From an uncultured delta proteobacterium (GTDB taxonomy: Bacteria; Desulfobacterota; Desulfobacteria; Desulfobacterales; JAFDCJ01): DNA of 64,000 nt. Every line of letters begins with the position of its first letter. Within the stretch, counting starts at the first letter, position 1. The notes beneath the pieces were generated by a model, which saw only the letters and a list, made by a program, of their open reading frames with translations, was not told where the DNA came from and did no database searches. The stretch is from contig CAVYNY010000022.1 of the NCBI GenBank assembly GCA_963769935.1, positions 256,001-320,000 of the forward strand, read 5' to 3'. This document shows, piece after piece, positions 3,896 to 52,453 of the stretch. The position numbers and the translations under genes were made by a program.

Positions 3896-5536
3896 ATGAA
3901 TATGGCAAAACCGAACAATCTTATCCTAGGAAAATCCGGGAAGAATGACGGCCGCATTGGTGTTTTTGACCGCCGAGCCGCCGAGTTGACCGAATTATTG
4001 AGGGCGTGTCGAGACCTCAGTGATATTTTAAATTCCGATGAGCTTTATGCAGCATTTGTCGGGATTATCAGACATAAATTCGGGATTGCCAAGCTGGCAT
4101 TATTCGCCTTTGACCCGGAAAAAGAGACTTTTGAGCTGGTTTTCAGCTCCGGATTGGGAAAGTTGGAATATAAATTTAAAACCGGAAAGGAAAATTTATG
4201 GCAAACGATTTTGCAGGGAAAACCATTTGCCGTCGTAGACGGTTCAGGGAATCCTCTTTTCGCCAAGTTCCTGGAAAAACAGGACTTAAAGATTTTGCCC
4301 TCCGAGCTGTGGGTTCCGCTGGTCATGCGTAATGAGGTAATGGGAATTTTAACGATGGGAGACAAATCCGAAGGACATCCCTTTGACGATTTCGATCTCT
4401 ATTTTCTGCAGCAGATTACAGCCCAGGCTGCCGTTTCCATAAACACTTGCCGCATGTACGAGCGCCGTCGAAAAGAGAAAGAAGATTTGGACAACACCCT
4501 TCAAAACCTGTCGCTGCTCTACGGCATCGGCAAGGCGATGAACTACATCAGTGATCTCAAAAAGCTTCTGCAGTACATCCTGAAACAGGCGATTGATATC
4601 GCCGCGGCCGAAAAGGGCTCGCTTATGTTATACGACATTGAATCCGATCGTTTAAACATTCGGGTCCTGGCCGGGCTGGGGGATGTCGAATATCAGGACA
4701 AGGTCAATAACAACGAAATCAAATGCCGCAGTTTCAAACCGGGCGAAGGCATTGCCGGACGTGTTTTTTTAAACGCCCAGCCCATGATTGTAAATAATAT
4801 TCGCGATGACAGCCTGTTCATCGAGTCTGAAACCTCCTATGTTCGGTCCATTGCCTGTATCCCTATGGTCGTTTACAACGATGTCATCGGTGTCATCAAT
4901 GTAACCAACAAAAAAAACGGCAAAGAATTTACCGGCCTGGACATAAAGATGTTGAAAGCCGTTGCGGATCAGGCGGCGGTGGCCGTCAACAAAGCCCAGC
5001 TGTGGGATATGGCGGTTACGGATTCTCTAACCGGTCTGTATGTACGCCGCTATTTCATGGTCAAGCTGCAGGAGGAGATTCATCGGGCCGAACGATACGA
5101 CAAGATAATTTCAGTCATTATGGCGGATCTGGATCGGTTTAAAGATATCAACGACACCTATGGCCATGATGTCGGTGATCGGGCATTGGAAGCCATCAGC
5201 CAGTTTCTGCAAAAAAACATCAGAGATGTGGATACCATCGCCCGTTACGGCGGCGAAGAATTCGTTATGCTGATCCCGGATGCGGATAAGGAATCCGCCT
5301 TCAGCCTGGCCGAAAGGCTTCGCGAAGAACTTGCCCGGGTCAACCTCGACAACCTGCCGCCAATTACCATCAGTCTGGGAATTGCGACTTATCCCGCAGA
5401 CGGCACAGACATTGACGACCTGATAAAAAAAGCGGATGCTGCCATGTATGCCGCCAAAAAGGCCGGCCGCAACAATTCGGTAAAATACTCTGAAAATATA
5501 GGGCATGGGGCAAAGGGCAAGAAGGTAAGAGGGTAA
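3896..5536 (+). CDS. Diguanylate cyclase with two GAF domains
   Basis: DSLTGL, DLDRFKDINDTYGHDVGD, RxxD I-site (RDVD) and GGEEF active site; two GAF-like segments. Confidence 0.93.
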   Translation: MNMAKPNNLILGKSGKNDGRIGVFDRRAAELTELLRACRDLSDILNSDELYAAFVGIIRHKFGIAKLALFAFDPEKETFELVFSSGLGKLEYKFKTGKENLWQTILQGKPFAVVDGSGNPLFAKFLEKQDLKILPSELWVPLVMRNEVMGILTMGDKSEGHPFDDFDLYFLQQITAQAAVSINTCRMYERRRKEKEDLDNTLQNLSLLYGIGKAMNYISDLKKLLQYILKQAIDIAAAEKGSLMLYDIESDRLNIRVLAGLGDVEYQDKVNNNEIKCRSFKPGEGIAGRVFLNAQPMIVNNIRDDSLFIESETSYVRSIACIPMVVYNDVIGVINVTNKKNGKEFTGLDIKMLKAVADQAAVAVNKAQLWDMAVTDSLTGLYVRRYFMVKLQEEIHRAERYDKIISVIMADLDRFKDINDTYGHDVGDRALEAISQFLQKNIRDVDTIARYGGEEFVMLIPDADKESAFSLAERLREELARVNLDNLPPITISLGIATYPADGTDIDDLIKKADAAMYAAKKAGRNNSVKYSENIGHGAKGKKVRG

Positions 5537-5690
5537 GTGGTTGATAAGGGAGGAAAGCTGATAAGCTCGTAAGCTCTTAAGTTCGTGAGTAACAATTGGA
5601 TGATTTTTCACTCAACTAATCAACACAATCAACACAATCAACACAATCAATTCAATCAACTCGATGAACTCAACAAACTCAATAAACTCA
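5501..5690. repeat. Polarised short-tandem-repeat mosaic
   Basis: gggcatg-type 7-mers, gaaggtaa and taagctcg 8-mers, then tcaacacaa 9-mers. Confidence 0.85.
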
Positions 5691-5912
5691 CATTAACCTT
5701 TCCTTTTTTTAGCATATCTATTACAATTTCACTTGTATCCGATTTCCGGGCCTGATATTGAGCTTCTCATAAATTCGCCATTCTATGTTGAATAATTATT
5801 GAATTCTGTCTTATAGATTGTCTTGCGCTCAACGCCTTTAGAGAGGCTTTCAAAAAACGGGACGCCTCAAATATTCAATATTCAATTTTCAATTTTTTTA
5901 CCGGGAGGTCAT

Positions 5913-7262
5913 ATGACGGACATAATGGATGTTATAAAAGAAAGAGACCCACAGGAAAGAGAATTTCATCAGGCGGTTCATGAAGTCGTGGAATCCGTCA
6001 AGCCGGTTTTGGATCAGAATCCGATTTATCGGCAGGCGAAGATTCCGCAAAGACTGGTGGAGCCCGAACGGGTCATCATGTTTCGGGTGCCGTGGATGGA
6101 CGATCAGGGTAATGTTCAAATCAACCGCGGCTTTCGCATCGAAATGAACAGTTCCCTGGGACCCTACAAAGGCGGGCTGCGGTTTCATCCGTCGGTTAAC
6201 CTCGGCATTCTGAAGTTTCTGGCATTTGAGCAGACCTTTAAAAATGCCCTGACCACCCTGCCGATGGGCGGCGGAAAAGGTGGCTCCGATTTTGATCCCA
6301 AGGGCAAATCCGACAACGAAGTGATGCGCTTTTGCCAGAGCTTTATGTGTGAGCTTTTTCGGCATATCGGCCCGAACACGGACGTGCCCGCTGGAGACAT
6401 CGGTGTCGGCGCCAGGGAAATCGGATATCTCTTCGGAATGTATAAAAAGCTGCGCAATGAATTTACGGGGGTTTTGACCGGCAAAGGTCTGAACTGGGGC
6501 GGCAGCCTGATCCGTCCGGAAGCCACCGGCTACGGTTCGGTCTATTTTGCCGCTGAAATGCTGGCGACCCGCAACGAAACCCTGGAAGGAAAAACCTGCC
6601 TGGTTTCAGGCTCCGGCAACGTGGCTCAATTCACCGCCGAAAAGCTCATTGAATTGGGTGGCAGGCCGGTGACCTTATCAGACTCCTCAGGGTATATTTA
6701 TGATGAAAGCGGCCTGAATGGAGAAAAGCTCGAGTATGTGAAAATCCTCAAAAATGTCCGTCGCGGACGCATTTCTGAATATGCCGACAAATATTCCTCG
6801 GCCATATACACACCGGTTGATCCGGCATTGGACCACAATCCCCTCTGGAACCATAAAGCCGACTGTGCTTTTCCCAGTGCCACCCAAAATGAAATCAACG
6901 GCCAGGATGCCCAAAACCTGATAAACAACGGCATCATCATGGTCTGTGAAGGCGCCAACATGCCGACGGTGCCCGAGGGAATCGACATTTTCAAGGATCA
7001 CAAGATCCTATACGGACCGGGCAAGGCGGCCAATGCCGGCGGGGTTTCGGTTTCCGGTTTGGAGATGACCCAAAACAGCATGCGGCTGGTCTGGACGCGC
7101 GAAGAAGTCGACAACCGCCTAAAGCTTATCATGAAAACCATTCATCGCACCTGCGTGGATGCCGCCGAGCGGTACGGGGCAGCGGGCAATTATGAGGCGG
7201 GCGCCAATATCGCCGGTTTTGTGAAGGTTGTGGATGCCATGCTGGATCAGGGGCTGGTGTAG
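5913..7262 (+). CDS. gdhA: NADP-specific glutamate dehydrogenase
   Basis: GPYKGGLRFHPSVN, GGGKGGSDFDPKGKS, DVPAGDIGVG, RPEATGYG; GGAGG RBS before ATG 5913. Confidence 0.97.
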   Translation: MTDIMDVIKERDPQEREFHQAVHEVVESVKPVLDQNPIYRQAKIPQRLVEPERVIMFRVPWMDDQGNVQINRGFRIEMNSSLGPYKGGLRFHPSVNLGILKFLAFEQTFKNALTTLPMGGGKGGSDFDPKGKSDNEVMRFCQSFMCELFRHIGPNTDVPAGDIGVGAREIGYLFGMYKKLRNEFTGVLTGKGLNWGGSLIRPEATGYGSVYFAAEMLATRNETLEGKTCLVSGSGNVAQFTAEKLIELGGRPVTLSDSSGYIYDESGLNGEKLEYVKILKNVRRGRISEYADKYSSAIYTPVDPALDHNPLWNHKADCAFPSATQNEINGQDAQNLINNGIIMVCEGANMPTVPEGIDIFKDHKILYGPGKAANAGGVSVSGLEMTQNSMRLVWTREEVDNRLKLIMKTIHRTCVDAAERYGAAGNYEAGANIAGFVKVVDAMLDQGLV

Positions 7263-7393
7263 GAAGGTTAAAGGTCAAAGGCAAAAGGCTAAAGGATCCG
7301 GCAAAGGGTATGGCGCGTGGTGCATAGAGCTGAGGGCAAAGGGCAGGGGAAAAATGCCTAAATTGCCTAAAGTGAACTAAAATGCCTAAAATT
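7263..7393. repeat. Short-tandem-repeat mosaic
   Basis: aaaggNN 7-mers, gggcaaa/gcataga 7-mers, tgcctaaaN 9-mers. Confidence 0.8.
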
Positions 7394-7559
7394 TAAATTA
7401 GGATCAGATCTATTTTTAATCTACCACGTCTAACTGCATTGTCCGCAAGGTTTAGAAAACCCCAAAAATATTCCAAACAAAAATGTTGGGTCGGCCATCG
7501 GGTCGACCCTTTGCTTTAATACAGGGTCGACAGCCGAAACGCTCTTTTTTGATAAACCC

Positions 7560-8303: not shown

Positions 8304-8624
8304 ATGAATCAAAATAATCTGCAAATAATTAAAGAACTGAAGCGTCTGCTATTGAAGAAATTTAGCTTTGTTTCAAAAATTATTTTATTCGGATCTCAGG
8401 CTTCCAAAGAGATTTCAAGAAGTTCAGATTTCGATATACTTATCATTGTACGCCATGATATTTCCTGGAGACAGAAGAGAGAAATTGTGGATGAAATATA
8501 TTCAATTGATCTTAAGTACAATATACTGACAGACGTTAAAATAATTTCAGAACCACAATTAAATACATTAAGGGGAAAACAACCTTTTATCCAAAATGCG
8601 CTCAAGGAGGGAATTGCTGCATGA
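8304..8624 (+). CDS. Minimal nucleotidyltransferase (MNT) antitoxin-like protein
   Basis: LFGSQAS...SSDFDIL (GS-x10-DxD); low GC; ATGA overlap with the HEPN gene. Confidence 0.88.
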   Translation: MNQNNLQIIKELKRLLLKKFSFVSKIILFGSQASKEISRSSDFDILIIVRHDISWRQKREIVDEIYSIDLKYNILTDVKIISEPQLNTLRGKQPFIQNALKEGIAA

Positions 8625-9007
8625 AAGATGAGGATAGAAAAGCACTCATCAAACATCGCATTTCGAAAGCAAATGATGCTATTCGAGATGTTGAATTCCT
8701 GATCAAGAGTAAAAAGCCTTTGCTTGCGATTAACAGAATCTATTACGGGATTTTTTATATATTATCAGCGTTATCCTTAAAACATGATTATCAAACCTCA
8801 AAACATCAACAACTGATTGGGTGGTTCAATAAAGAATTTGTTGCCTCCGGCAAGTTGGACCCAAAATATGGTAAGATAATTCATAATGCATATAAGAATC
8901 GGTCAACAGGTGATTATGACGATTTTGCGGAGTTTGATGAGGAGGAGGTCAAGGACTCTTTTGAAGAGATGAAGGAATTCATTGCTGCTGTTCGAGCAAT
9001 GTTGTAA
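8621..9007 (+). CDS. HEPN-domain protein, partner of MNT
   Basis: NRIYYGIF, SKH, RSTGDY motifs; 128 aa. Confidence 0.88.
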   Translation: MKDEDRKALIKHRISKANDAIRDVEFLIKSKKPLLAINRIYYGIFYILSALSLKHDYQTSKHQQLIGWFNKEFVASGKLDPKYGKIIHNAYKNRSTGDYDDFAEFDEEEVKDSFEEMKEFIAAVRAML

Positions 9008-9013
9008 ATCAAC

Positions 9014-10336: not shown

Positions 10337-10347
10337 GGTAGTTGCTT

Positions 10348-10503
10348 TAGTTGAATGGTTGATTAGTTGATTGAGTTTATTGAGTTGATTCAGTTGATGG
10401 GTTGACTGGGTGATAACTTAAAAATAAACCGTTGGGATTGTTGATCGTTGATGGTTGATAGCAGAAAGGCTGGAAAGCTAGGATGCCGGGAGGCTGGAAG
10501 GCG
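10348..10503. repeat. Short-tandem-repeat mosaic (left-arm forms)
   Basis: gttgattga 9-mers, gttgatN 7-mers, gctggaaN 8-mers. Confidence 0.85.
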
Positions 10504-10542
10504 GTATTCGACGAAGGAAAGAAAATCGCCGCGACCGGTTTA

Positions 10543-11766: not shown

Positions 11767-11770
11767 TAAA

Positions 11771-11869
11771 GTTTGGAATTTTGAATTTCAGTCATTGTGA
11801 ATTGTCCGAAACTTGATATTTGTTATTTGGTATTTTTTTGCTGAAACCTGAACACTGACACCCGATACC
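11771..11869. repeat. Polarised short-tandem-repeat mosaic
   Basis: ttggaat/ttggtat 7-mers, then ctgaaac/ctgacac 7-mers. Confidence 0.7.
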
Positions 11870-11919
11870 TTCATTTTATTTCAGCATATTACAAGAAATT
11901 ACTTTATCAGCGCCTGCTC

Positions 11920-15433: not shown

Positions 15434-15747
15434 GATCGTTGAGATCGTTGAGATCGTGAAATATGCACTTTGCGCCTTACCCTATACTTTATACTTTAAT
15501 ATCTTATACCCTATGCTCTTTGCCCTCTGCCCTATGCTCCATGACCTTTGCTCCATGCCCTATGCCTTTTGCCCTATGGTCTATGCCTTCGCCTCTTTCT
15601 TAGCCTTCCGTCATTCCAGCTTCCCATCTTTTCCTTATTCTCACTCTCTCACCATGTACCACTTTCCCCGTTTCCCCGTTTCAATCTTTTCAAACTTTCT
15701 GATCTTCTAATCTTCTGCTCTTCTCGTCTTCTAACCCTCTCACTCTC
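15434..15747. repeat. Polarised short-tandem-repeat mosaic filling the whole spacer
   Basis: gatcgttga 9-mers, then ccctatg 7-mers and cttccagc, ttctcacN, tttccccg, ttctNNNc 8-mers. Confidence 0.9.
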
Positions 15748-17608
15748 CCATATCATCCAGTTCTTTTAACTCACGATTAAACTCAGCATTTCGAGTGTCC
15801 AACTCACCGGTGACTTTTTCAAGTTCATTAAACAGGTAGTCAATTGCCGTTTGACAGGCATGGATGGAGCGGGAGAGCCCGGCGATGCGGATCCCGTCCT
15901 GTTCCTCGGAAGCCTGCTGCATGGCGCGGTTGAGTTGATCCAGCTCGATTTCGCGGGTTTCGATTTCGTTTTCAATACTCTTGATACGCTTTTCAAGCGG
16001 TTTTACCGTTTTCGATCTCAGGTTGGTGATCTCGGATCTTTTGCGCCGCATTTCTTTTCTGGTCTGTTTGGCCGCTGCTGTTTTGAAAGTGATTTTTGAC
16101 CGGCCGGCCGGTATGGCTGAATTTTCATCCTGCCAACCGCCCTTTTCGAGAAACTCCTGATATCGACCGTCGAATGTTTCGATTCGATCATTTTGAAATA
16201 CAACCAGTCTTTCAGCCAGGGAATGCAAAAACATCTCATTGTGGGTCACCATGATTACGGTTCCCTCAAAAAGGTCGATGGCGGCCAGCAATGCATCGCA
16301 GGATTCCATGTCCAGGTGGTTGGTCGGTTCATCAAGAAGCAGCAGGCTGACCGGAGTGGCCAGCAGCTTTCCCAGCATTACCCGGCTTTTTTCGCCGCCG
16401 GACAAGACGCTGATTTTTTTTAAGGCATCATCCCCGGAAAACATCATGGCACCGCAAATATTGCGGGCCCGCTGCCGGTCAATATCCGGGTGGGAATAGA
16501 GTATTTCCTCCTCGACCGTTCGGGTATCCACCAGGCTCCTGACGTTGGTTTGTTCAAAAAAGCCCTTGATCGTGGCCGGATGATATTCAACCGTTCCGGA
16601 CCGCGGCCTCAACTCGCCGGCCAACAGTTTGAGCAGGGTGGTTTTGCCTTTGCCGTTTTTCCCGACAACACAGATCCGCTCCTGCGCACCGACTGTGATG
16701 CTGAAGTCCTTTATAACATGACGCTGGTCGGTATAGCCAAACGCGAGATTGCGGGCGCTCAAGACCTGTTTGCCGGGAAACGGGCTACTGCGAAAAGAAA
16801 AGTCCAGGAATTTGACCTCCTCCAGCTTTTCTTTTTTCTCCAATTTTTTAAGGGTCTTGACGCGGGACTGGACCAGATTTGCCAGCCTGGCCTTGGCGCG
16901 AAAGCGGGTGATAAATTGCTGAATTTCTTTGCGGCGGCGTTCATCGTTAATTCTGGTTTTTTCGTATACTTCTTCATCCTGAGCGATCTGGTTGTAGTAC
17001 TTGGCGGTGTCGCCGGCAATTTTACGCAATTTGCGGCGATGGATTCCCATGGTGTGGGTGACCACTTTATCCATAAAACTGCGATCATGGGTAATGAGCA
17101 TCAGCTCATGCGGCCAGGTGCTCAAGAACTGCTCGATCCATCGAATGGAAGTGATGTCCAAAAAGTTGGTCGGTTCATCCAAAAGCAGCAGGTCCGGTTC
17201 CGCAACCAGGGCTTTGACAAGATTCAAGCGCACCTGTAGTCCACCCGAAAATTCTGCGGGACGGCGACCAAAGTCTTCCTGGCTGAAGCCCAGTCCGGCA
17301 AGAATCTTTTCAACCTTCCAGTAGTGATCCTTCTCATGGGCGGGAAGTGCGAGTATTCCTTCTTCAAGCGCCGTATCGGCCGAAAACGAAAGCTGTTGCT
17401 GAACATAAACCATGCGGTAGTTCTTCGGAATAACGATCGCGCCTGAATCCGGCTGCTCTTCTCCGGCGATCAGCCTGAAAAGGGTTGTTTTGCCATGGCC
17501 GTTTTTCCCCACCAGCCCCACCCGCTGTCTCTGGTTGATGGAAAAGGCAATGCCGTCAAAAAGGATTTGACCACCGAAACTTTTTGTCAGATTTTCTACG
17601 CGAATCAT
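15740..17608 (-). CDS. ABC-F family ATP-binding protein
   Basis: Two ABC domains (GKNGHGKTT, GKNGKGKTT, LDEPTN twice), no TM segments, coiled-coil C-terminus. Confidence 0.93.
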   Translation of the reverse strand: MIRVENLTKSFGGQILFDGIAFSINQRQRVGLVGKNGHGKTTLFRLIAGEEQPDSGAIVIPKNYRMVYVQQQLSFSADTALEEGILALPAHEKDHYWKVEKILAGLGFSQEDFGRRPAEFSGGLQVRLNLVKALVAEPDLLLLDEPTNFLDITSIRWIEQFLSTWPHELMLITHDRSFMDKVVTHTMGIHRRKLRKIAGDTAKYYNQIAQDEEVYEKTRINDERRRKEIQQFITRFRAKARLANLVQSRVKTLKKLEKKEKLEEVKFLDFSFRSSPFPGKQVLSARNLAFGYTDQRHVIKDFSITVGAQERICVVGKNGKGKTTLLKLLAGELRPRSGTVEYHPATIKGFFEQTNVRSLVDTRTVEEEILYSHPDIDRQRARNICGAMMFSGDDALKKISVLSGGEKSRVMLGKLLATPVSLLLLDEPTNHLDMESCDALLAAIDLFEGTVIMVTHNEMFLHSLAERLVVFQNDRIETFDGRYQEFLEKGGWQDENSAIPAGRSKITFKTAAAKQTRKEMRRKRSEITNLRSKTVKPLEKRIKSIENEIETREIELDQLNRAMQQASEEQDGIRIAGLSRSIHACQTAIDYLFNELEKVTGELDTRNAEFNRELKELDDMGE

Positions 17609-17878: not shown

Positions 17879-17976
17879 ATAAGCGCAAATTCCGGAGTAA
17901 GAAACGAAATGGCGATTGTCGAATGAAGATTAAAGCAATGCTTCAAATTCGGAGTCGACGGTGTGAACCGAACTTA

Positions 17977-18132
17977 GGGCTCACTTAAAAATAATTTCAC
18001 ATTTTATACGCCGCTGCATCCCACCTGGCTGCGTTGCGAAAGCTCGGAATATCCAGATATTCCTGCGTTTTCGCGCCTTGCCAGCCGGGCGTCGCAACGC
18101 CTAAAATTGTGAACTTACCTTTTCGTGAACCC
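17977..18132 (+). mobile_element. 156-bp hairpin MITE, copy 1
   Basis: Ends GGGCTCAC...GTGAACCC; TTA duplicated at 17974-76 and 18133-35; closely similar to copies 2 and 3. Confidence 0.88.
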
Positions 18133-18209
18133 TTAGCAATCAAGCATTCGACTTTCGAGCGTCGGGGTTTATCATTCAACTACACGGGTTGGAGAGGAGG
18201 AGGCCGCCT

Positions 18210-19707: not shown

Positions 19708-19820
19708 ATTGAAGATTGAAAATTGAAGAATGAATATTTAATGAATTCTTTCCGCTTTTAAATTTAAAAGAGGAGGGAGCGAAGCGACATTCACAAATAT
19801 TCAATCTGCAATCTTCAATT
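19708..19820. repeat. Inverted 7-mer arrays around a short core
   Basis: attgaag-type array...gaatattt / aaatattc...cttcaat-type array; the right arm recurs at 5868-5893. Confidence 0.75.
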
Positions 19821-19886
19821 TCGCTTTTAATTGAGGATCTTCCGGCCGGTTGCAGGTTAAAACAAAAAAAATAGATAAATAGATAA

Positions 19887-26481: not shown

Positions 26482-26520
26482 CTGCTTTTTTGCCGTTTTC
26501 CCAACGGAGCACGCAGTGAT

Positions 26521-26790
26521 GTTGGAGGTTTGAGGTTGGAGGCAGAAAGATAAAAAATACCAGGCTTAAGTACAAGGTGCAGGGTTTCGGGTTTGCAGCA
26601 GGGTCTACGGGGCCGGCTGATAGTTGATGGTTGATTGGGTTGCCGGAAAGATGGGTCCCCGCAATGCTCATGAGCTTTGATGCTCACGGACTAAGAACTC
26701 ATGAACTTCTGAGCTTACGAGCTTGCAAACTTAGTATCTTCCAACCTCCCAACTTTCCAGCTTCTGTTATCTGTCCTCTGTCTTCTGTTC
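26521..26790. repeat. Polarised short-tandem-repeat mosaic between convergent rluD and rnfA
   Basis: gttggag, aggtNcN, gNtgatN 7-mers, then gagcttNN and cttccaNc 8-mers and tctgtNN 7-mers. Confidence 0.85.
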
Positions 26791-27365
26791 TACACCATCC
26801 CCTTGAAGGCTAAAAAGGTAAGGGAGAGAACCCCGGCCGTCACCAGGGCGATGGAGGTGTCCTGCAGAGGACGCGGGACGCGGGCCAAAAGGATTTTTTC
26901 CCGGACACCGGCGAATAGGACCAAGGCCAGGCCGAACCCCACCGCGTAGGCGAAGGATGCCACCAGCGTCTGCATGAAGTTATACTCTTCGTTGATATTA
27001 ATCAGGCACACGCCCAAGACGGCGCAATTGGTGGTAATCAACGGTAAAAAGATGCCCAATCCCGCATAAAGGGCAGGGATGCTCTTTTTTAAAAACATCT
27101 CCACAAACTGGACCAGTGAGGCGATCACCAGAATAAACGCTACGGTTTGAAGGTATTTCAGATCATATTTGACCAGGAAGTAGGTGTAGGTCATCCAGGT
27201 GAACACGCCGGCCAGCACCAGGACGAAGACCACCGCCATGGCCATGCCGATGGCGGTTTCCATTTTCTTGGATGTCCCTAAAAAGGGGCAGTTGCCCAGA
27301 TACTGGGCCAGCAAAATATTATTAATCAGGATACAGCTGATGGCAAGAACTAATAAATCACCCAT
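26790..27365 (-). CDS. rnfA: Rnf complex subunit A
   Basis: QYLGNCPFLG, LGIFLPLITTNCAVLG. Confidence 0.95.
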   Translation of the reverse strand: MGDLLVLAISCILINNILLAQYLGNCPFLGTSKKMETAIGMAMAVVFVLVLAGVFTWMTYTYFLVKYDLKYLQTVAFILVIASLVQFVEMFLKKSIPALYAGLGIFLPLITTNCAVLGVCLININEEYNFMQTLVASFAYAVGFGLALVLFAGVREKILLARVPRPLQDTSIALVTAGVLSLTFLAFKGMV

Positions 27366-31284: not shown

Positions 31285-31518
31285 ATTCCGTCCATACCTT
31301 AGATTCTAGTTTTGAAAACCTGATTTTCCGGGCCAGGTCAGTCCGCATGAGCCGCATTGCTGCAGTTGAACGCCATGGGGTACTGGAATAATGAAATGTT
31401 GGAGTGCTGGGTTTGGCGGACTGCGATCTATTGTAAACAGCATTCCTCAGAAATTCAAAGTTCGACTACCACAATGCCATAAAGCTTTCAAGAATTTTTT
31501 TATGGGATGTAGTGCCAA

Positions 31519-31674: not shown

Positions 31675-31695
31675 TAAATCAAACGGTCGTTCGTG

Positions 31696-33993: not shown

Positions 33994-34318
33994 AGCTGGT
34001 CGGCAGGCGGTTAGAGCGGCGAAGGCGGGAGACTGGGAAGCGGAAGGGCATGGGGCGCAGGGCATAGAGTATAGGGAATGAGCATGGGGCAAAGGGCATT
34101 GAGCATAGGGCGTGGGGTAAAGAGTTAGAGCGAAGGCCATAGCGTCCATTTGGTCGATTGGATTGGGGCTTACGAACTCCCGAGCTTATGTTATGAGCTT
34201 ACCAGCTTACCAGCTTTCAAGCCTTCCAACTTGCCGGCCTTTCTGCGACTCACTATTAACTCAATAAACTCAATAAACACAACAAACACAACAAACTCAA
34301 AAGACCCAATCAACCAAG
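33994..34318. repeat. Polarised short-tandem-repeat mosaic
   Basis: G-rich 8-mers and gggcatg 7-mers, then agcttacc 8-mers and ctcaataaa/cacaacaaa 9-mers. Confidence 0.9.
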
Positions 34319-37580: not shown

Positions 37581-37603
37581 GTTTTGCCCTCCTACCGAGT
37601 ATA

Positions 37604-37791
37604 GTTATTGGTTATTGGTTTTCGTCGTTTCTGAATTCTATCCTCTATCTTCACGAAGGCTGGGAAGCCGGGAAGCTGGGAGGCTGGGAAGTTGCGAAAC
37701 AGAACCCTTTGCCCCGCATTTTGCCTTCCGACTTCGCACACCTCCGACCTCTGTTCTCTGTTTTCTGACATCTGTCTTCTGTCTGTCTGTC
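37604..37791. repeat. Polarised short-tandem-repeat mosaic between ftsA and ftsZ
   Basis: gttattg 7-mers and gctgggaa 8-mers, then tctgNNN 7-mers. Confidence 0.85.
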
Positions 37792-39951: not shown

Positions 39952-39965
39952 TTTTAGCAGGCCTT

Positions 39966-40172
39966 TTAGTTGATTCAGTAGACTAAGTTTATTGAGTTCA
40001 TTGGGTTCATTGAGTTGACTAAGTCTATTAAATTAATTGAGTTGATAGGTCCTAGTTGATAGCTTCCAGGCTTCTCAGCCTATCTAGATTCTCAACCTCT
40101 CGCTTTCTTATCTTCTCATCTCCTCTTTGTCTGCCATTCTCTCACCTTCTCACCTTCTCACCTTCTCAACTT
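39966..40172. repeat. Polarised short-tandem-repeat mosaic between murC and ftsQ
   Basis: ttgagttca-type 9-mers, then ttctcacc 8-mers. Confidence 0.9.
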
Positions 40173-41554
40173 CTTTTCCCCCCGCCTTCCAACTCCTGCA
40201 GCAGCAACTCCCCCACCTTCCAGACATCTCCGGCGCCAAGGGTCAGCAAAACGTCGGCCGGTTTTAAATTTTGCTTCAGGTAAGCCGCCGCATCTTCGAT
40301 CCCCGCCGCATAAACTACTTCCCTGTGGCCGTGAGCCTGAATGCCTTCACCCAGCAACCGGCCGGATACACCTTCGATTTCTTTCTCGCTGGCGGCATAA
40401 ATCGGCAATACGAGCAGAACATCGCATTGGTAGAATGAACGCGTGAAATCATCAAACAGGGCCCGGGTCCGGGTGTAGCGATGCGGTTGAAAAACGACCA
40501 CTTTGCGTCGGCCGGGCCAGCATTTCTCAACTGCCTCCAGGGTGCTTTTAATTTCGGTGGGATGATGCCCGTAATCATCCACCACCGTGATATCATTTGC
40601 CTCACCCTTGATTTCCAGCCTGCGCTGGACGCCTTCAAGGGTTTCCAGCGCTTTTTTGATGGCTGCGAAAGGCACATCCAACTCGATGCCCACCGCGATA
40701 CTGGCCGTGGCGTTGTAGACATTGTGAAGGCCGGGCAGATTCAGGGTAATGCGGCCAAGCTTCTGCCCGTGGCAATAGACGGTGAACCGGCTTTGCCGCT
40801 TCTCAAACGTCACATCCCTTATCTGGAAATCGGCTTGGGAGTTCATGCCATAGGTTGTATAGCGTTTTTTAATTTTAGGGATCAAATCCTGGATCGGCTC
40901 GTTGTCCAGACAAAGGACGGCCAGACCGTAAAATGGTATCCGATCGATAAAGCTCAGAAAGACAGACTTGATGGCATCCAGGTCCGCATAAAAATCCAGA
41001 TGCTCACGATCAATATTCGTGACCACGGCTATGGCGGGCGAGTATTTCAAAAATGATCCATCGCTTTCATCGGCTTCGGCCACGATAAAATCACCCTGGC
41101 CCAAAACGGCGTTGGATCCGATACTTTTCAGCTTCCCGCCGATGACCACCGTCGGATCAAGCCCCCCACGGGCCAATACCGACGCCACTATCGAGGTCGT
41201 TGTGGTTTTACCGTGCGCACCGGCGATGGCCACACTGTATTTTAACCGCATCAACTCGGCCAACATTTCAGCCCTTGGAATTACCGGAATCGATGCCTGC
41301 TCGGCAGCCAGCACCTCGGGGTTGTCGCGGCTGACGGCCGACGAGGTTACGACCACATCGGCGCCGCTGATCTGGTCTGCCAGATGCCCTTCAAAGATAA
41401 TGCCGCCCAATGCTTTGAGCCGCTCGGTGATATCGGAGGATTTCAAATCTGACCCGGATACCCTGTAGCCCAGATTGAGCAGCAACTCGGCAATGCCGCT
41501 CATTCCGATGCCGCCGATTCCGACAAAATGGATGTGATATTTTTTTCGATACAT
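40166..41554 (-). CDS. murC: UDP-N-acetylmuramate--L-alanine ligase
   Basis: IHFVGIGGIGMSG, GAHGKTTTT, EADESDGSF, DDYGHHPTE. Confidence 0.97.
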   Translation of the reverse strand: MYRKKYHIHFVGIGGIGMSGIAELLLNLGYRVSGSDLKSSDITERLKALGGIIFEGHLADQISGADVVVTSSAVSRDNPEVLAAEQASIPVIPRAEMLAELMRLKYSVAIAGAHGKTTTTSIVASVLARGGLDPTVVIGGKLKSIGSNAVLGQGDFIVAEADESDGSFLKYSPAIAVVTNIDREHLDFYADLDAIKSVFLSFIDRIPFYGLAVLCLDNEPIQDLIPKIKKRYTTYGMNSQADFQIRDVTFEKRQSRFTVYCHGQKLGRITLNLPGLHNVYNATASIAVGIELDVPFAAIKKALETLEGVQRRLEIKGEANDITVVDDYGHHPTEIKSTLEAVEKCWPGRRKVVVFQPHRYTRTRALFDDFTRSFYQCDVLLVLPIYAASEKEIEGVSGRLLGEGIQAHGHREVVYAAGIEDAAAYLKQNLKPADVLLTLGAGDVWKVGELLLQELEGGGKRS

Positions 41555-41555: not shown

Positions 41556-41610
41556 GTTTCGAGTTCCGTGTTACGGGTTGCGCGTTTTGCACTGCGTGTT
41601 TCGCGCTTTG
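41556..41610. repeat. 7-mer tandem array (gttNcgN)
   Basis: gtttcga gttccgt gttacgg gttgcgc. Confidence 0.65.
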
Positions 41611-42791: not shown

Positions 42792-42894
42792 GCTGATAGG
42801 CTTAAGGATTTTAAAAAAGCTGATAGCCGATAGCTGACAGCTGATTGTCTGAATGATGCAATCCTTGCTTTTCCATGAGCTATGAGCAATGGGC
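42792..42894. repeat. 7-mer tandem arrays (gctgata, atgagct)
   Basis: gctgatagccgatagctgacagctga; catgagctatgagcaatgggc; same families at 48288-48352. Confidence 0.75.
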
Positions 42895-42923
42895 TGGAAG
42901 CGTGCATCTTTTAACCTGTACCT

Positions 42924-45514: not shown

Positions 45515-45560
45515 AATCAATAATTTTACTAAAATGGTCGATTATTCATGTAGTTCCAAT

Positions 45561-45620
45561 CCGACCGCCTCGCTCTTGCTGGCAGGAGGGCAGGGCCTGA
45601 GCAAGGGCAGAGGCGGTCGG
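45561..45620. repeat. GC-rich hairpin element between mraY and murD
   Basis: ccgaccgcctc/gaggcggtcgg 11-bp perfect IR plus inner cttgct/agcaag. Confidence 0.7.
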
Positions 45621-45627
45621 AGCTTGG

Positions 45628-46707: not shown

Positions 46708-46798
46708 TTTTAATCCCTACATTGCCTAAATTGTCTAAAATTAAGGGTGCTAACCATTTTTATGATCGCTGTATCCAATGACTAATAACAAATAACCA

Positions 46799-48229
46799 TT
46801 AACTTTTTATCTCTCCCGCCCGATCCTTCAGCCCCTGGACCACCTTTTCCATGGCCATGCCGCGTGAACCTTTTACCAGGACCCAGTCGCCGGGTTGCAA
46901 CCGGGCGATCAGATCTTCGACTATCTCCTCGCGGGATCCGGTGATGAAATCGGCCTCCGGCAGACCTGCATTGCGGGCGCCGGCTGCCACAGAATCGGCA
47001 TATTCTCCGTAGGCATATAATCGGCTGATTCCGGATTGGGCGGCCAGAGCACCGACCTGGCTGTGCAGCGGCGCCGCCTGCCGGCCGAGCTCCAGCATAT
47101 CCCCGGCGACAAAAATTCCTCTGGCCCCGGCGCGCACCGTGTTAAAGGCTGACAGGGCGGCCTTCATCGATTCCGGATTGGCATTGTAGGTATCGTCGAT
47201 AATGTGGATCCCGTTGGGTGTATGATGGATGTTCATCCGGCCACTGACCGGTTCAACCGCCTCCAACCCGGCTTTAATGTCAGCGGCCGACACCCCCAGC
47301 AGATTCCCGACAGCCGCCGCGGCCAGGGCATTGGTCACCATAAAGCGGCCGGGAGAATTCAGGCGGATGGATATGCGCGCTTCAGCAAGCTTCAGCATAA
47401 AGCATATTCCATTTTCTTTCTCGGCGACATCCTCCGCTCTGACTGCGGCATCCGGCGCAAGACCATAGAGACGCACTTGGTGGGCAGTTTGGCGGGCCAG
47501 TTGCCGTACCCGGGAATCGTCGGCATTGAGAACTGCTTTGCCGTTTGGGCGCAGACTATTCAATAGAGACCCTTTTTCCCGTGCGACCCCTTCAATTGAT
47601 CCCAGGCCTTCCAGGTGGGCCGGGCCGATATTGGTAATGACAGCGATATCCGGCATGCAGATTTCGGCCAATCTTGCGATTTCCCCCGGGTTGTTGGTGC
47701 CCAGCTCCACGACGGCCCATTGATGATCGGGCTCAAGACCCAGCAGGGTCAAGGGCAAGCCGATCTGGTTATTGAAATTTCCGGCCGTCGCCAGCGTGTT
47801 GTACTGCCGTGAGATGACAGCGGCGGTCAATTGACGGGTGGTGGTTTTGCCGTTGGAGCCCGTAATGGCCACAACCGAAGCCTTGGAGCGCCGGCGGTTG
47901 AAGGCCGCCATATCACCCAGGGCGCGGGTAGTGTCTTTCACCGCGACGGCCGTAACACCTTTTTGTTTCCACTTTGCGACAGGCAGTTTGCCAGCTTCCC
48001 GGCGGCTGATCACCAACCCCCGTCCCCCCTGTTCGACAACATCCGATGCAAAGGTATGGCCGTCATGAATCTCGCCGATAATGGCTATAAAAACGCCGTC
48101 GGCAGTGACTTTGCGCGAGTCGATAAAGATCCCCGCAAACGACTGCTGCAATTCGCCGCACAAAAGCTTACCACCGGTGGCTTCAAGGATCTCCCTGGTT
48201 GTCCAGGGTATGGGTCTGTCGCTGCTCAT
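46799..48229 (-). CDS. murF: UDP-N-acetylmuramoyl-tripeptide--D-Ala-D-Ala ligase
   Basis: ITGSNGKTTT, NFNNQIGLP, DDTYNANPESM, VKGSRGM. Confidence 0.96.
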   Translation of the reverse strand: MSSDRPIPWTTREILEATGGKLLCGELQQSFAGIFIDSRKVTADGVFIAIIGEIHDGHTFASDVVEQGGRGLVISRREAGKLPVAKWKQKGVTAVAVKDTTRALGDMAAFNRRRSKASVVAITGSNGKTTTRQLTAAVISRQYNTLATAGNFNNQIGLPLTLLGLEPDHQWAVVELGTNNPGEIARLAEICMPDIAVITNIGPAHLEGLGSIEGVAREKGSLLNSLRPNGKAVLNADDSRVRQLARQTAHQVRLYGLAPDAAVRAEDVAEKENGICFMLKLAEARISIRLNSPGRFMVTNALAAAAVGNLLGVSAADIKAGLEAVEPVSGRMNIHHTPNGIHIIDDTYNANPESMKAALSAFNTVRAGARGIFVAGDMLELGRQAAPLHSQVGALAAQSGISRLYAYGEYADSVAAGARNAGLPEADFITGSREEIVEDLIARLQPGDWVLVKGSRGMAMEKVVQGLKDRAGEIKS

Positions 48230-48287
48230 TATATTTTTACTTTTTTGAGGTTTCTCCTCTTCACTTTTTCGGAGAAATTATCAACTA

Positions 48288-48435
48288 TTAGCTGATAGCT
48301 GATAGCTGATGGCAAGATGGATTTTGGCCTGCTTTACTATGAGCTATGAGCTCTTGTATCTCAGTCCTCAGCACTTAGTTCCGAGCTCCGAGCGTCCGGC
48401 ATCGAGAATCAGGTATCCAGCATCAAACATCCAGC
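48288..48435. repeat. Polarised short-tandem-repeat mosaic between murE and murF
   Basis: gctgata x3 and atgagct x2, then ctcagNN, tccgagc, tccagca 7-mers. Confidence 0.8.
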
Positions 48436-50072
48436 TTCGCCAGCGCTTTTCTGGCCTCTTCCCGGTCATCAAAGTCTATCGTTTTCTTCCCGATAATCTG
48501 GTACGTTTCATGTCCTTTGCCGGCAATTATTACGGCATCGTTCGGCCTGGATGCCATTATGGCCAGCTCAATAGCGCGTCGACGGTCCGGTTCAACGATA
48601 TATCCTTTTTTATCAATCCCAGTTTTCACATCCTGCACTGAATATTGGATGCCGCCCGCCGCTTTGATCCCCGGTAATATCTGATCGATGATGGCAGCCG
48701 GCTCTTCGGTACGCGGGTTGTCCGATGTCACGATCGCCAGATCGCAAAGCCGGGCGGCAATCTCTCCCATCTGAGGGCGCTTGTCCCGGTCGCGGTCCCC
48801 ACCGCAGCCGAATACGCAGATGATCCCGGCCGGGGCAATTTGCTTTAAGGCGGACACCGCATTTTTCAGGGCATCCGGTGTATGGGCATAATCCACGTAG
48901 ACAAAACGTTCTGTAGCATTTTCGATCCGCTCAAGGCGGCCGGGTATGGCCGATAGTGATTCGACGCCGGCTTTAATTGCGGACAGAGGTATTTTCAGCG
49001 CTGCAGCCGTCCCGGCGGCACTGAGAATATTTGCGAGATTATGTATTCCCACAAGGGGAGTTTTGAAATCAAAACTCCCCTGTGGGGTGGAAACCCTCCC
49101 CTGGGTGCCCGTTAATCCATAGCGGGAGGTTTCGGCCTTAATTTCACAAGCAGGGGTCGATCCGGTTTTAATAATCGGCAATGACAGATCTTTCGCCAGC
49201 TCTGCCCCTTTGGGATCATCACAATTGATAACGGCCACCGCTTTATCTTTTTTGGGTCCGCAGTTCAGATACTCGGTAAATAGGCGCTTTTTGCAGGACC
49301 AGTACGCTTGCATGTCGCCATGAAAATCGAGGTGATCCTGGCTCAAATTCGTAAAGACGGCCACATCAAACCGGCAGTTTCTGATCCGGAATAGCGCCAT
49401 GGCATGGGAAGACGCTTCCATTACGACATGGGTGACTCCGGCCTGCAGCATTTCCGACATAATGCGCTGGAGATCCAGGGATTCCGGAGTCGTCACAGGA
49501 TTGGGGAACGTTTTGTCAGCATAGCGATAATTTATGGTTCCAATTACACCAACCTTAAAATCGGCGGCCGACAGGATACTTTCGATTAAATAAGCGACGG
49601 TGGTCTTACCGTTGGTGCCGGTGATGCCGATCAGGGTCATATGATCCGACGGCCGGCTGAAAAAACAGGCGGCCAAATCAGCCAGTGCCGTGCGGGTATC
49701 CCGCACGTGGACGATGATCGGTTGGCTTTGTGGCAACGTCGACCGGCCTTCTTTAAGAAAGGATCGATCCGGTTTCTTTTGGACCACCACGGCTGCCGCT
49801 CCCCTTGCCAGTGCCTGACCGATAAAATCATGGCCGTCCGCCCTGTGACCCTCAATGGCAACGAAAAGGCCATTTGGCTCCACTTCCTGGGCTCGGCAAT
49901 GAATTGAACTGATGTCGGTATCCGGCGAGTCGGCAGTGGGCATAGGACCAAGGGTATAGCGCACCTTGGCAACGCTTTTTGCGCTTTGCGCTTTGCCTTC
50001 TGCCTTCAGGCTGAATATTCCAATGGGTTCAATCGCTTTTAGTAAGGTTGAAAGCTGCACCTGCTCACCCAT
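48423..50072 (-). CDS. murE: UDP-N-acetylmuramoyl-L-alanyl-D-glutamate--DAP ligase (with repeat-derived in-frame insert)
   Basis: ITGTNGKTT, TTPES, VDYAHTPDAL, DNPR (DAP specificity), AGKGHE. Confidence 0.96.
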   Translation of the reverse strand: MGEQVQLSTLLKAIEPIGIFSLKAEGKAQSAKSVAKVRYTLGPMPTADSPDTDISSIHCRAQEVEPNGLFVAIEGHRADGHDFIGQALARGAAAVVVQKKPDRSFLKEGRSTLPQSQPIIVHVRDTRTALADLAACFFSRPSDHMTLIGITGTNGKTTVAYLIESILSAADFKVGVIGTINYRYADKTFPNPVTTPESLDLQRIMSEMLQAGVTHVVMEASSHAMALFRIRNCRFDVAVFTNLSQDHLDFHGDMQAYWSCKKRLFTEYLNCGPKKDKAVAVINCDDPKGAELAKDLSLPIIKTGSTPACEIKAETSRYGLTGTQGRVSTPQGSFDFKTPLVGIHNLANILSAAGTAAALKIPLSAIKAGVESLSAIPGRLERIENATERFVYVDYAHTPDALKNAVSALKQIAPAGIICVFGCGGDRDRDKRPQMGEIAARLCDLAIVTSDNPRTEEPAAIIDQILPGIKAAGGIQYSVQDVKTGIDKKGYIVEPDRRRAIELAIMASRPNDAVIIAGKGHETYQIIGKKTIDFDDREEARKALAKLDV

Positions 50073-51792
50073 TTGCCTTGATTTCCAGGGATACCCTTAA
50101 TTTGGTTTTGTCACTTTCAGGAGCGACATTTAAATAGTTGAGCGTTTGCTGGGCGATATCTTTAAATACCGGTGCGGCAACTGCGCCCCCGTAATAACTT
50201 TCCTTGGGTTCATCGATGACGACCAGAATCGCTATTTGCGGATGATCGGCCGGCGTAAATCCCACAAAAGAGGCCATATGTTTGCTGTTCGAATATTTTC
50301 CATTTTCATCGAGCTTGCGGGTGGTGCCTGTTTTACCGCAAACCGAATATCCATCCAGAGCGGCATTTACGCCGGTGCCGCCCTCGGTAATGACGGACTG
50401 CATTATTTTTTTTACAATGCCGGCTGTTCGGGCGGAAACGACACGCCGCACCTGCTGTGCCTTGTAGGTTTTAACGGGAAGACCGTTTTGATCGGTCAGC
50501 TCCTTTACAATATAAGGTTTCATGAGGATTCCGTCATTGGCGATAGCCGAAACCGCCGTTATCAATTGAACGGCTGAAACGGCCAATCCATGACCGAAAG
50601 AAATGGCACCGATGTCTATATCCGACCAGGAGGAATAATAGGAGAGACTGCCGGTTGTTTCACCGGGGCAGTCAATGCCTGTTTTCTCGCCAAAACCAAA
50701 GCTGTGAAATGTTTGATAAAGCTTTTTGGCTCCCACCTTTTCACCGACTTTTGCAGCCCCGATGTTACTGGAGAACTTAATGATTTGCCGCAGCGACAGC
50801 CAGCCATGCCGTTCGATATCATGAACGACATTTCTCCCAATTTTATAGGCGCCGTTCTCACAATAAAAAATGTCGTCTGGTTTGATGTTGCCATATTCCA
50901 GTGCTGCCGCCGCGCTGAAAATCTTGATGGTTGAGCCCGGCTCAAATGGATCGGTGATGGCCCGGTTGCGCCAGAGGGATCGGTCGTATTCCAAATAGGA
51001 ATTCGGATTGATCGTCGGATATTGAGCGATCGCCAGAATGGCGCCTGTCTGCGGCTGCATGACAATTGCCAAAGCGGATGCCGCTGAATATTGATCAACA
51101 GCCTGCTGCAGGGCGTTTTCAGTTATATACTGGATGGTGCTGTCAATGGTCAGTACCAGGTTATGCCCGCTGTCGGCCGTCATTTGCCGGTTTTCGGGAC
51201 TAAAACCGTTGCCCAGGGCATCCTGGAAGAACGTAAAATTATTGTGATTTCCTGTCAGCTGACGGTTGTAGAAAAATTCAATACCTTCCAAGCCCCCGCC
51301 ATCCAAACCGGTAAAACCCAGCGCCTGGGCCGCTAAAGTCGTATTGGGATAATAGCGGTTGTATTCCTGGACAAAATCGATGCCCGGCAACTCAAGATCT
51401 TTAACCAGGCTGGTTTCTTTGGCCGTTGTTTGGCGCTTGATCCAGACAAAGGATTTGTCGATTGTGAGCCGTTTTTTGACAGCACGCGCGTCCAACTTCA
51501 AAATTTTAGCCAGAGCCTTGGCACTTGCGTTAATATCCTTTATCCGGGACGGGTAGGCAGCAATCGATGTCACATTCACGCTGACGGCCATTTCCCGCAT
51601 ATTGCGGTCATAAATAATGCCGCGCTTGCCGGATGTGGTTAACGATTTTTCATACTGACCGGTGGCTATCTGCGACAGCCACTGACTCCGATAAACTTGC
51701 AACTGTACCGCTTTGGCGACAATGGCCGCAAAGGCCCCCAGAAAGATGAGACCCACCAGCAGGATTCGCATTTTGAAATATTTATTTTCCAT
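50065..51792 (-). CDS. ftsI: Penicillin-binding protein FtsI
   Basis: RGIIYDRN, EPGSTIK (SxxK), SSN, KTGT. Confidence 0.95.
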   Translation of the reverse strand: MENKYFKMRILLVGLIFLGAFAAIVAKAVQLQVYRSQWLSQIATGQYEKSLTTSGKRGIIYDRNMREMAVSVNVTSIAAYPSRIKDINASAKALAKILKLDARAVKKRLTIDKSFVWIKRQTTAKETSLVKDLELPGIDFVQEYNRYYPNTTLAAQALGFTGLDGGGLEGIEFFYNRQLTGNHNNFTFFQDALGNGFSPENRQMTADSGHNLVLTIDSTIQYITENALQQAVDQYSAASALAIVMQPQTGAILAIAQYPTINPNSYLEYDRSLWRNRAITDPFEPGSTIKIFSAAAALEYGNIKPDDIFYCENGAYKIGRNVVHDIERHGWLSLRQIIKFSSNIGAAKVGEKVGAKKLYQTFHSFGFGEKTGIDCPGETTGSLSYYSSWSDIDIGAISFGHGLAVSAVQLITAVSAIANDGILMKPYIVKELTDQNGLPVKTYKAQQVRRVVSARTAGIVKKIMQSVITEGGTGVNAALDGYSVCGKTGTTRKLDENGKYSNSKHMASFVGFTPADHPQIAILVVIDEPKESYYGGAVAAPVFKDIAQQTLNYLNVAPESDKTKLRVSLEIKANG

Positions 51793-51896
51793 CACGAATC
51801 AGGTTCTCATTTTTTCTACTCTGATAATTTATAGCCAATGCCTGATACAGAATAGCTTGGGTTTTAGGTTCCTTATTAAAAAGGCTATCATCATTA

Positions 51897-51937
51897 ATTT
51901 TAGGCAATTTAGGCATTTTAGTTCATTTCAGGCATTT
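51897..51937. repeat. 9-mer array, reverse complement of the tgcctaaaN family
   Basis: ttttaggcaatttaggcattttagttcatttcaggcattt. Confidence 0.75.
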
Positions 51938-51941
51938 ATAT

Positions 51942-52253
51942 TTATGGCATCACGATTGTTTGTTTCGCCCTCGGCGAAATCAAACCCAGCTGCTCTCTGG
52001 CTATTTTGGCAATGCGCCGGGGAGATTTAAGACGCGCCAGTTCAATTGTTAAGTTATCCTGCATCGCGGAGAGTTGTTGGACGGTTTGGGCCTGCTTGGC
52101 GATATCATACTTAACCTGGGTGGACTGTACCCGACACCACGTGTAAAAAAGGAGTTCGGCGATGAATACGGCCATCAAAACCAGACAGGTCATAACCATT
52201 TTCGGGTTGCGTTGCTTGCGCTTCCGGTTGCTGATCTTTACGTTTTTGGCCAT
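51942..52253 (-). CDS. ftsL: Cell division protein FtsL
   Basis: 103 aa, single TM, coiled coil, SPRRIAKIAREQLGL; between rsmH and ftsI. Confidence 0.88.
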   Translation of the reverse strand: MAKNVKISNRKRKQRNPKMVMTCLVLMAVFIAELLFYTWCRVQSTQVKYDIAKQAQTVQQLSAMQDNLTIELARLKSPRRIAKIAREQLGLISPRAKQTIVMP

Positions 52254-52267
52254 CGTATGAAAGATTC

Positions 52268-52453
52268 AGTTGATTCGATTACTGGTTGATGAGTTATAAA
52301 GGATCGTTTAGTACGTTTTGATCGTCCCGGTTAAACAAAAGACAAAAAGGTTTAACGGGATAAATTCGGATCGTTAAGGTCGTCACCGTCTCATCTTCCC
52401 GGCTTCTGATCTTCTCAACTTCTGAGGTTCTAATTTTCTCACCTTCTGTCTTC
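52268..52453. repeat. Polarised short-tandem-repeat mosaic between rsmH and ftsL
   Basis: gttgat and gatcgtt units, then ttctNNNc 8-mers. Confidence 0.7.

Follow-up and report, generated by a model that had tools for sequence, protein, structure and literature searches.

The intergenic spacers of the 64,000-nucleotide stretch studied here (the window, positions 256,001-320,000 of contig C22 in the 8.0-Mb, 41-contig assembly G000 of an uncultured delta proteobacterium) contain polarised mosaics of short tandem repeats. These arrays are likely scars of small cassettes encoding PF05635 four-helix-bundle (S23p/Avd-like) or GxxExxY proteins, which landed near gene ends and then lost their gene, their centres later likely being invaded by other families. 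The arrays are read as cassette remains because their families match cassette arms one by one, and the cassette ancestry of the arms is well supported. The window carries an ABC operon, prs-rplY-pth, rnf and the division and cell wall (dcw) cluster, and its genes look deltaproteobacterial. An array in one orientation is termed a left (L) arm and in the reverse complement a right (R) arm; G000 is the window's own genome, other G numbers denote relatives, and numbered L codes denote fetched loci.

G000 holds seven PF05635 genes, all outside the window. At six of them the upstream array is left-form and the downstream array is the same family in reverse, while the seventh gene is interrupted close to the end of a contig. 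The protein family is present in all 23 genus genomes (23/23), from which the best 116 of about 160 matches were taken, 111 of them with an open reading frame (ORF) of at least 95 residues. In these 111 loci upstream arms are left-form by 119 to 5 and downstream arms right-form by 108 to 15, the cassette order being left-form arm, gene, right-form arm. The same repeat family was called on both sides in 63/111 loci, and a quick tree, from which the pairing was read off, gives one repeat family per PF05635 protein clade (in the protein alignment A1 the start position is uncertain for a few ORFs). The initial annotation had ascribed inverted-array flanks to both gene types, correctly: all ten families it named flank PF05635 genes somewhere in the genus, and GxxExxY genes, placed by Pfam among PD-(D/E)XK nucleases, are flanked by three further families, CGCAGAGAT, AACAGGATT and AAAGCACG. 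GxxExxY loci were taken by family model, a plain motif scan yielding mostly false matches; automatic labelling found matched arms at 6 of 21 such loci, and related 9-mers are visible by eye at others. The central genes of cassettes score above the PF05635 cut-off, and the seven short genes between matched arms in G000 comprise five PF05635 genes and two unannotated ones. Intact cassette genes run in the same direction as the upstream host gene at 66/67 classifiable loci.

When gene-less arm pairs were typed against cassettes from relatives, 140 could be classified, and 114 of these combine an upstream-type with a downstream-type arm; a further 164 pairs are partly or wholly unclassifiable. The proportion is 108/115 in the four best-behaved families; typing is unreliable for several others (GGATGCT, GCGGGTT, CAGGTGT). 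From 105 loci of relatives, those mapping to adjacent G000 genes delimit 29 junctions. At these junctions, which bear the gene in a relative, G000 has arms only in 18 cases, a gene in 4, a tight armless junction in 3 and a longer spacer without called arms in 4. About a third of the 18 arms-only junctions bear the relative's own family and the remainder another family, which indicates that sites are reused. A single junction may be tight, gene-filled, stub-bearing or arms-only depending on the relative. As an example of decay, at C2:18198-18498 the first 20 codons of a cassette ORF are fused to the downstream arm. A tblastn survey of spacers gave 14 matches, compared with 0 in reversed spacers; 7 were judged true non-self stubs, and two ORF stubs are antisense to the host gene. 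The cassette-scar explanation, one of two that the initial annotation had offered, is supported by the flanks of the 111 loci, the match between clade and repeat, the orthologous junctions, the ORF stubs and the arm typing.

Turnover is high. Arms occupy dcw and rnf junctions in 84/181 genus cases, compared with 3/78 order-level cases, where the genes are mostly tight (profiles were trained on G000 itself, and an order-level relative could have arms of further families that they fail to detect). The ftsA-ftsQ junction has arms in 1/17 genomes (G018), and such single-genome cases point to gain. Between G000 and G022, 30 of 118 orthologous arm-bearing spacers have an arm in common and 88 are wholly different. 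The ftsZ-ftsA spacer of G022 is nearly the same as the window's. Invariant positions of gene-less arms diverge by 18%, compared with 24% for other spacer DNA (31 alignments, both directions counted). Frequent flipping of hairpin interiors was considered and rejected, orientation being kept in the 4 or 5 informative ones of 7 orthologous hairpin pairs, a small number of cases.

The arrays themselves are abundant and confined largely to spacers. A genome-wide periodicity scan detected 2,124 arrays with a period of 7, 8 or 9 in 1,265 of 5,082 spacers; in sequence subjected to block-of-two shuffling it detected 39, spread over 38 spacers. Densities for the three periods are 737, 341 and 203 per Mb of spacer vs 7, 6 and 33 per Mb of coding DNA. 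Units are 7-9 nt long, tandem and non-palindromic, with a median array length of 4.0 units, and they are degenerate at fixed positions (e.g. GAA-N-ATT, in which the other six positions are 91-98% conserved). Arms were called with 34 family profiles at a score cut-off of 17; calibration on 250 spacers gave 199 calls on real against 7 on shuffled sequence at score 16, and 171 against 1 at score 18. In this way 3,301 arms were called in 1,524 of 4,885 spacers (31%), with spacer boundaries approximate because genes were called from a simple codon model. Between 5.4 and 52.5 kb of the window 20 of 28 spacers bear arms, so the statement that most spacers contain arrays is correct for the window but not for the genome. 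All six intervals that the initial annotation had given as examples hold arrays as described. It had also found none at 54-64 kb, and the profile scan agrees, with arms in 0/17 spacers from 54 to 80 kb. A polysaccharide gene cluster occupies 53.8-64 kb of the window and continues to 80 kb, armless in the 17 spacers, perhaps owing to a recent arrival.

Contigs from other runs reproduce five array stretches with 0-2 substitutions: 33754-34124 and 37362-37715 (0 differences each), 46631-47641 (1 difference), 47971-48554 (1 difference plus 2 gap letters) and 51550-52000 (2 differences). The arrays are not an assembly artefact, though independent contigs bridge only some of them.

The order of arms is strongly polarised. 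Without any training, the G-rich unit lies to the left of the C-rich unit in 311/354 spacers. When half of the contigs were used to train and half to test, 347/377 spacers had all left before all right arms, 14 were reversed and 16 mixed, and the pattern was seen in every gene-orientation class. By profiles, four orientation-ambiguous families being excluded, 649 of 664 two-armed spacers are all-left-before-right in all four gene orientations, and L-to-R transitions number 664 vs 15 R-to-L. The fixed orientation reported for the window, whatever the direction of the flanking genes, is also seen genome-wide. Since L..R reads identically on both strands, replichore or transcription skew cannot yield this polarity. 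Two other descriptions hold in part. Left forms are mostly G-rich, but in a few families the left form is C-rich, e.g. tgcctaaaN; and the pairing of different families is typical of the window, where 7 of 11 two-armed spacers have no family common to both arms, but not of the genome, where 372/649 two-armed spacers are simple matched one-family hairpins.

Many arms also lie close to the 3' ends of genes. Divergent spacers are poor in arms (18% vs 33-35%), 605 of 1,297 arms facing a gene 3' end overlap the stop codon or lie within 10 bp of it, and 251 arms genome-wide overlap a stop codon. Some arms have been turned into the final codons of core genes (window 5498-5536, murF of G020, and murG of G022 and G006); at the first of these the upstream GGDEF gene runs 12 codons into the 5501..5590 arm, with its stop at 5536.

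With regard to mobility, a complete element was found in one clade, the AATAATGG family, which is organised as left arm, four-helix-bundle gene, Y2 HUH transposase (PF04986), short Cys-rich ORF and right arm. In G007 this IS91-type element is present six times (L360-L365, at least 99% identity), four of the copies being internally deleted, and no target duplication was found in these six. Further loci are L394-L473, and decayed elements are present in G022 (L165) and in G000 (C13 near 346,500 and C24 near 9,900). Among 71 metagenome loci that could be assessed, 31 have a Y2 gene or stub after the four-helix-bundle gene; a right arm lies beyond the Y2 gene in 14/15 long metagenome copies, and left ends abut GAAC, CAAG or GGAC in 23/33. 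The two Y2 matches in G000 do not adjoin a four-helix-bundle gene, and the IS91 link may represent capture by IS91 rather than a general mechanism. In most families no enzyme or target duplication was found, the nearest genome used being ~80% identical and too distant for exact junctions. Our best guess for families other than AATAATGG would be a single-strand cut-and-join enzyme acting in trans. The window encodes no responsible enzyme, as had been noted before.

A relation between protein and repeat is suggested, for one protein, by conservation across phyla. The heptamer ATT[GT][AT] is kept at 62/80 loci of one protein's relatives (59-82% identity; from Bacteroidota, Planctomycetota, Cloacimonadota and others) vs 2/92 loci of other clades. 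Retention of the repeat core at ~60% protein identity suggests selection, though shared descent alone could give the match. The structural model of L001 (predicted local distance difference test score, pLDDT, 96.5) resembles the pentameric structures 2GSC and 2RLD, with a weak match to Avd as well (TM-score 0.76, 12% identity, E 0.016). Arms pair with their own partner no better than with another copy's (17.9 vs 18.8 for gene-less pairs; -74.4 vs -73.2 kcal/mol for cassettes, with 7.8% of permutations as good), and on these predictions they appear to fit candidate binding sites better than an optimised stem. Each protein may read its own repeat, with about one unit per subunit of the pentamer. 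A broader proposition, which we consider doubtful as a whole, is that PF05635 constitutes a large family of clade-specific, sequence-specific repeat readers, a putative pentamer sitting on about four to five units, and that it would direct targeting for a class of mobile elements that is widespread but as yet undescribed. These would borrow a HUH-type transposase (in cis in one clade) and enter the loops of older copies, so that in core operons the history of some 30 element families would be written in order of age from the outside in. Adenine-specific variation, as in diversity-generating retroelements (DGRs), was examined as a candidate and rejected, most adenine positions being invariant.

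The way in which mosaics arise can be proposed from the same data. Side-by-side insertion would make R-to-L transitions, which are nearly absent, and this argues that new material enters between existing arms. One G007 copy of the IS91-type element (L361) indeed lies inside an older hairpin, with that hairpin's left arm on one side and its right arm on the other. Directly nested family pairs (7, vs 3 crossed) point the same way, as do outer arms, found in more genomes than inner ones in 18 cases vs 5 with 7 ties, and the rnfB spacer, where three genomes have two outer right arms in common but not the innermost. Insertion would occur at the DNA level in either orientation, and the ORF would be kept only in copies read through from the upstream host gene. 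Newcomers would then enter between existing left and right arms, single arms would be deleted later, and gene-less arms would decay almost neutrally, so that the order of a polarised mosaic may roughly record age. Centre growth, repeat reading and a general mobiliser are what we infer. Some families keep a fixed outer and inner order (ACAGAGG outside the GAAG group, 23 vs 2; GGATGCT outside xAGGxTT, 11 vs 0), reflecting either waves of activity or composite arms. With a coarse detector the inner and outer counts, 6 and 7 of 111, were uninformative.

Several results weigh against these proposals. In 192 of 277 multi-family spacers no family is common to both sides, and pure nesting therefore requires heavy single-arm loss; the scarcity of matched families needs either such loss or recombinational chimeras. 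The genomes behind the count of outer and inner arms are not independent, and the pairwise test of centre growth against G022 was weak, at 12 vs 7. No ORF remnant was detected by tblastn in the window spacers, and there are about 7 non-self stubs genome-wide. Only 2 of 281 gene-less hairpins of four-helix-bundle families have a sibling of at least 90% identity, and these hairpins may arrive either with or without the gene. The families GTAAGCTC, ACTGAGG, GTCTGTT, ACGGCGC and GATAGTT have no cassette in the locus sample. Most four-helix-bundle families lack a conserved outer terminus, and a Y2 transposase lies beside only 4/116 genus loci, all in one clade.

These points leave room for other explanations. 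It is possible, though somewhat unlikely, that the gene-less hairpins are themselves the mobile units, moved in trans like REP doublets (REP, repetitive extragenic palindrome), with gene-bearing cassettes as rare masters and little loss of ORFs on site. About 3,300 arms stand beside 7 genes, gene-less hairpins are randomly directed relative to the host gene (49 vs 45) whereas genes are co-directional at all but one locus, and internally deleted IS91-type copies have multiplied in G007. In three GxxExxY-type families 31/63 hairpins have a sibling of at least 90% interior identity, but four-helix-bundle families have hardly any such siblings, as given above. The ORF stubs, two of them antisense, show that whole cassettes insert and decay. 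Such movement is compatible with cassette decay and could be a second route beside it. Mismatched mosaics could also be chimeras, in which recombination within a flanking core gene joins the left arm of one strain to the right arm of another. The preponderance of unmatched multi-family spacers agrees with this, as do gene-bearing examples (L188, L119) and the unmatched mraY-murF pair, which is the same in G000 and G012. Directly nested pairs nevertheless occur (7 nested vs 3 crossed family pairs, not independent) and one central insertion was observed, so that we regard chimeras as an unlikely general source.

Maintenance for the host, with the arrays serving as RNA hairpins (RNase III sites, terminators) or as binding sites of operon regulators, would account for the position of arms at stop codons and their depletion in divergent spacers. 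Matched hairpins fold in prediction (z = -3.7 for the one at 19708..19821), and RNase III is described as cutting the Coxiella stem at the first heptamer (PMC4990558, available in part). It is quite improbable, given that arms pair equally well with another copy's partner, that mismatched mosaics are unfolded in prediction, that 30 of the 118 orthologous spacers share an arm with G022, and that invariant arm positions diverge nearly as other spacer DNA does. The second explanation of the initial annotation, in which a telomerase-like reverse transcriptase (RT) extends the two 3' ends of a break with repeats before they are joined, could draw on the head-to-head geometry, the mostly G-rich left forms and the fold shared with Avd, an RT accessory. 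It is not supported and we give it hardly any credence. It predicts arms of a single type, near-identical units and a very short interior, but the two arms are of different types (the 114/140 pairs), units vary at fixed positions, and interiors have a median of 72 nt and contain cassette-like inner motifs. Furthermore, G000 has ten RT matches, of which all six scanned are closest to group II intron RTs, with no dedicated RT among these six. No bias towards downstream is seen in single arms (77 vs 94), which also disfavours 5'-truncated retro-copies. Cassette decay remains the explanation that we prefer.

Several described systems resemble parts of this arrangement, as far as the accessible portions of their accounts extend. 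In the 23S rRNA intervening sequence (IVS) from Coxiella burnetii, an S23p ORF lies in the loop of terminal inverted repeats, tandem GACAGAT heptamers occur just upstream of the ORF, and the stem is cut by RNase III (PMC4990558). The likeness extends to protein family, ORF between inverted repeats and tandem heptamers; GACAGAT is a rotated form of the unit in the arms of cassette L095 and groups with the ACAGAGG family at 26761-26791 and 37741-37783. In the accessible text of that article the heptamers are treated as a feature of a single locus, whereas the cassettes here lie between protein genes, belong to some 30 families, are mostly gene-less and are stacked. All window arms lie between protein genes and none within an rRNA gene, Rfam matching one tRNA only.

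REPs with their REP-associated tyrosine transposases (RAYTs) and bacterial interspersed mosaic elements (BIMEs) share several traits: the gene lies within inverted cognate repeats, which vary along with its protein, doublets without a gene are numerous, and hybrid mosaics and stubs between repeats occur (PMC2817692). REPs are, however, imperfect palindromes of 20-40 nt served by a HUH Y1 nuclease, unlike the tandem, non-palindromic 7-9 nt units here, and our arms are ordered all-left-then-all-right rather than alternating and surround a four-helix-bundle protein without known catalytic activity. None of the 7 arm-flanked genes of G000 is a Y1 gene between inverted repeats; the flanks of the 11 Y1 matches were not examined. 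Intergenic heptamer arrays of about four units near gene ends, often in convergent pairs, are reported from Xanthomonas (GGGAATC) and Nostoc (PMC4692102) and from Beggiatoaceae (TAACTGA; PMC4679880), with one or two families per genome and, in the accessible parts of these articles, no linked gene named.

The AATAATGG element alone resembles IS91, whose small ORF orf121 and targets GTTC/CTTG/GTCC are described in PMC13181058. Both have a small ORF directly upstream of a Y2 transposase and no target duplication, and the flank GAAC/CAAG/GGAC is the complement of the IS91 targets. It differs in having inverted tandem arrays at both ends and its target tetranucleotide on the small-ORF side, opposite to IS91; its small ORF, a PF05635 member, may differ from orf121 as well. 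Avd, of the same fold, holds flipped-out RNA bases between subunits through the same residues from different protomers (bioRxiv 10.1101/2023.10.23.563531, available in part). No DGR RT or template/variable repeat turned up with the cassettes, although no search was aimed at DGRs. Compared with MITEs (miniature inverted-repeat transposable elements), near-identical gene-less copies characterise the three GxxExxY-type families (31/63) but not the four-helix-bundle families (2/281).

In the published full texts searched, subscription papers and supplements lying outside the search, we found no account of a general link between repeat and gene; the only printed precedent found is a single locus, the heptamers of the Coxiella 23S IVS. 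The results connect the 7-9 nt repeats long noted between genes with two protein families that are uncharacterised, and suggest that rRNA intervening sequences bearing an ORF represent one landing site within a far larger class of cassettes. A predicted ligand, its own repeat, can be assigned to each protein clade, and of the members found the IS91-type element is the first to be complete and to carry an enzyme. Turnover between two congeners is high even within the cell-division operon.

Arms in the window are listed in Table 1. The AAATxxC part of 11772..11870 aligns with a cassette arm of the relative L177. In the mosaic at 34015..34314 the two outer right arms are common to G008 and G022, and the innermost right arm is different in all three genomes. 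The left arms of the ftsZ-ftsA spacer differ in distribution among genus genomes, gttattg being present in 9/19 and gctggaag in 2/19.

Table 1. Arms in the spacers of the window.
Position	Strand	Spacer	Arms	Predicted RNA fold
5501..5590	+		left arms gggcatg, gaaggtaa (GAAGGTGA family), GTAAGCTC	
5618..5690	-		right arm, gttgattga family	
5870..5896	-	ahead of gdhA	right arm, attgaag/GAATATT family	
7264..7392	+	from gdhA stop	three stacked left arms AAAGGTT, gggcatg, tgcctaaaN	
10340..10504	+		left arms gttgattga, gctggaag	
11772..11870	-	within ABC operon	right arms AAATxxC, CAGGTGT	
15434..15751	.		mosaic: left gatcgttga; right gggcatg, gctggaag, AAACGGGG, AAGATCAG; families unshared	
19708..19821	.	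tRNA gene-prs	matched gene-less hairpin, attgaag family	stem, z = -3.7
26517..26791	.	convergent rluD/rnfA	six-family mosaic; families unshared	
31375..31410	+		left arm, GGAGTATT/AATAATGG group	
34015..34314	.	rnfB-radical SAM gene	mosaic	
37602..37783	.	ftsZ-ftsA	mosaic: left gttattg, gctggaag; right GAATTCG, ACAGAGG	
39965..40174	.	ftsQ-murC	mosaic: left gttgattga; right GAAGGTGA group	no stable hairpin, z = +0.45
41556..41605	+	murC-murG	lone left arm, GCGGGTT family	
42818..42895	.	murG-ftsW	matched hairpin, gctgata family	
46712..46804	.	mraY-murF	left tgcctaaaN; right gttattg	
48289..48435	.	murF-murE	matched gctgata pair; outer right arms ACTGAGG, GGATGCT	
51897..51937	-	ftsI-ftsL	lone right arm tgcctaaaN	
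52301..52453	.	ftsL-rsmH	left gatcgttga; right AAGATCAG	

Other features were recorded in the same DNA. The motif GAGCG(A/C)AGCGA is present in 133/1,524 arm-bearing and 45/3,361 other spacers, with a window copy at about 19780, and its complement also starts the IS91-type element. A GC-rich hairpin of ~70 nt between murD and mraY (45546-45627) is kept in most genus genomes while the remaining spacer turns over, and it has no Rfam match at gathering score. A 165-bp element bounded by terminal inverted repeats, its flanks TAA/TTA-like, occurs at 17972-18136, 20976-21140 and 31517-31677 of the window, in part at 3660-3692, and in 75 full-length copies in the genome; it looks like an ordinary MITE, separate from the arms. 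Single-base indels relative to four other runs, at 35512/3, 35677, 35809, 36618 and 37865, point to assembly errors as the source of the split radical SAM gene and the short ftsZ. Finally, a nucleotidyltransferase and HEPN pair at 8304-9007 is likely a toxin-antitoxin module.

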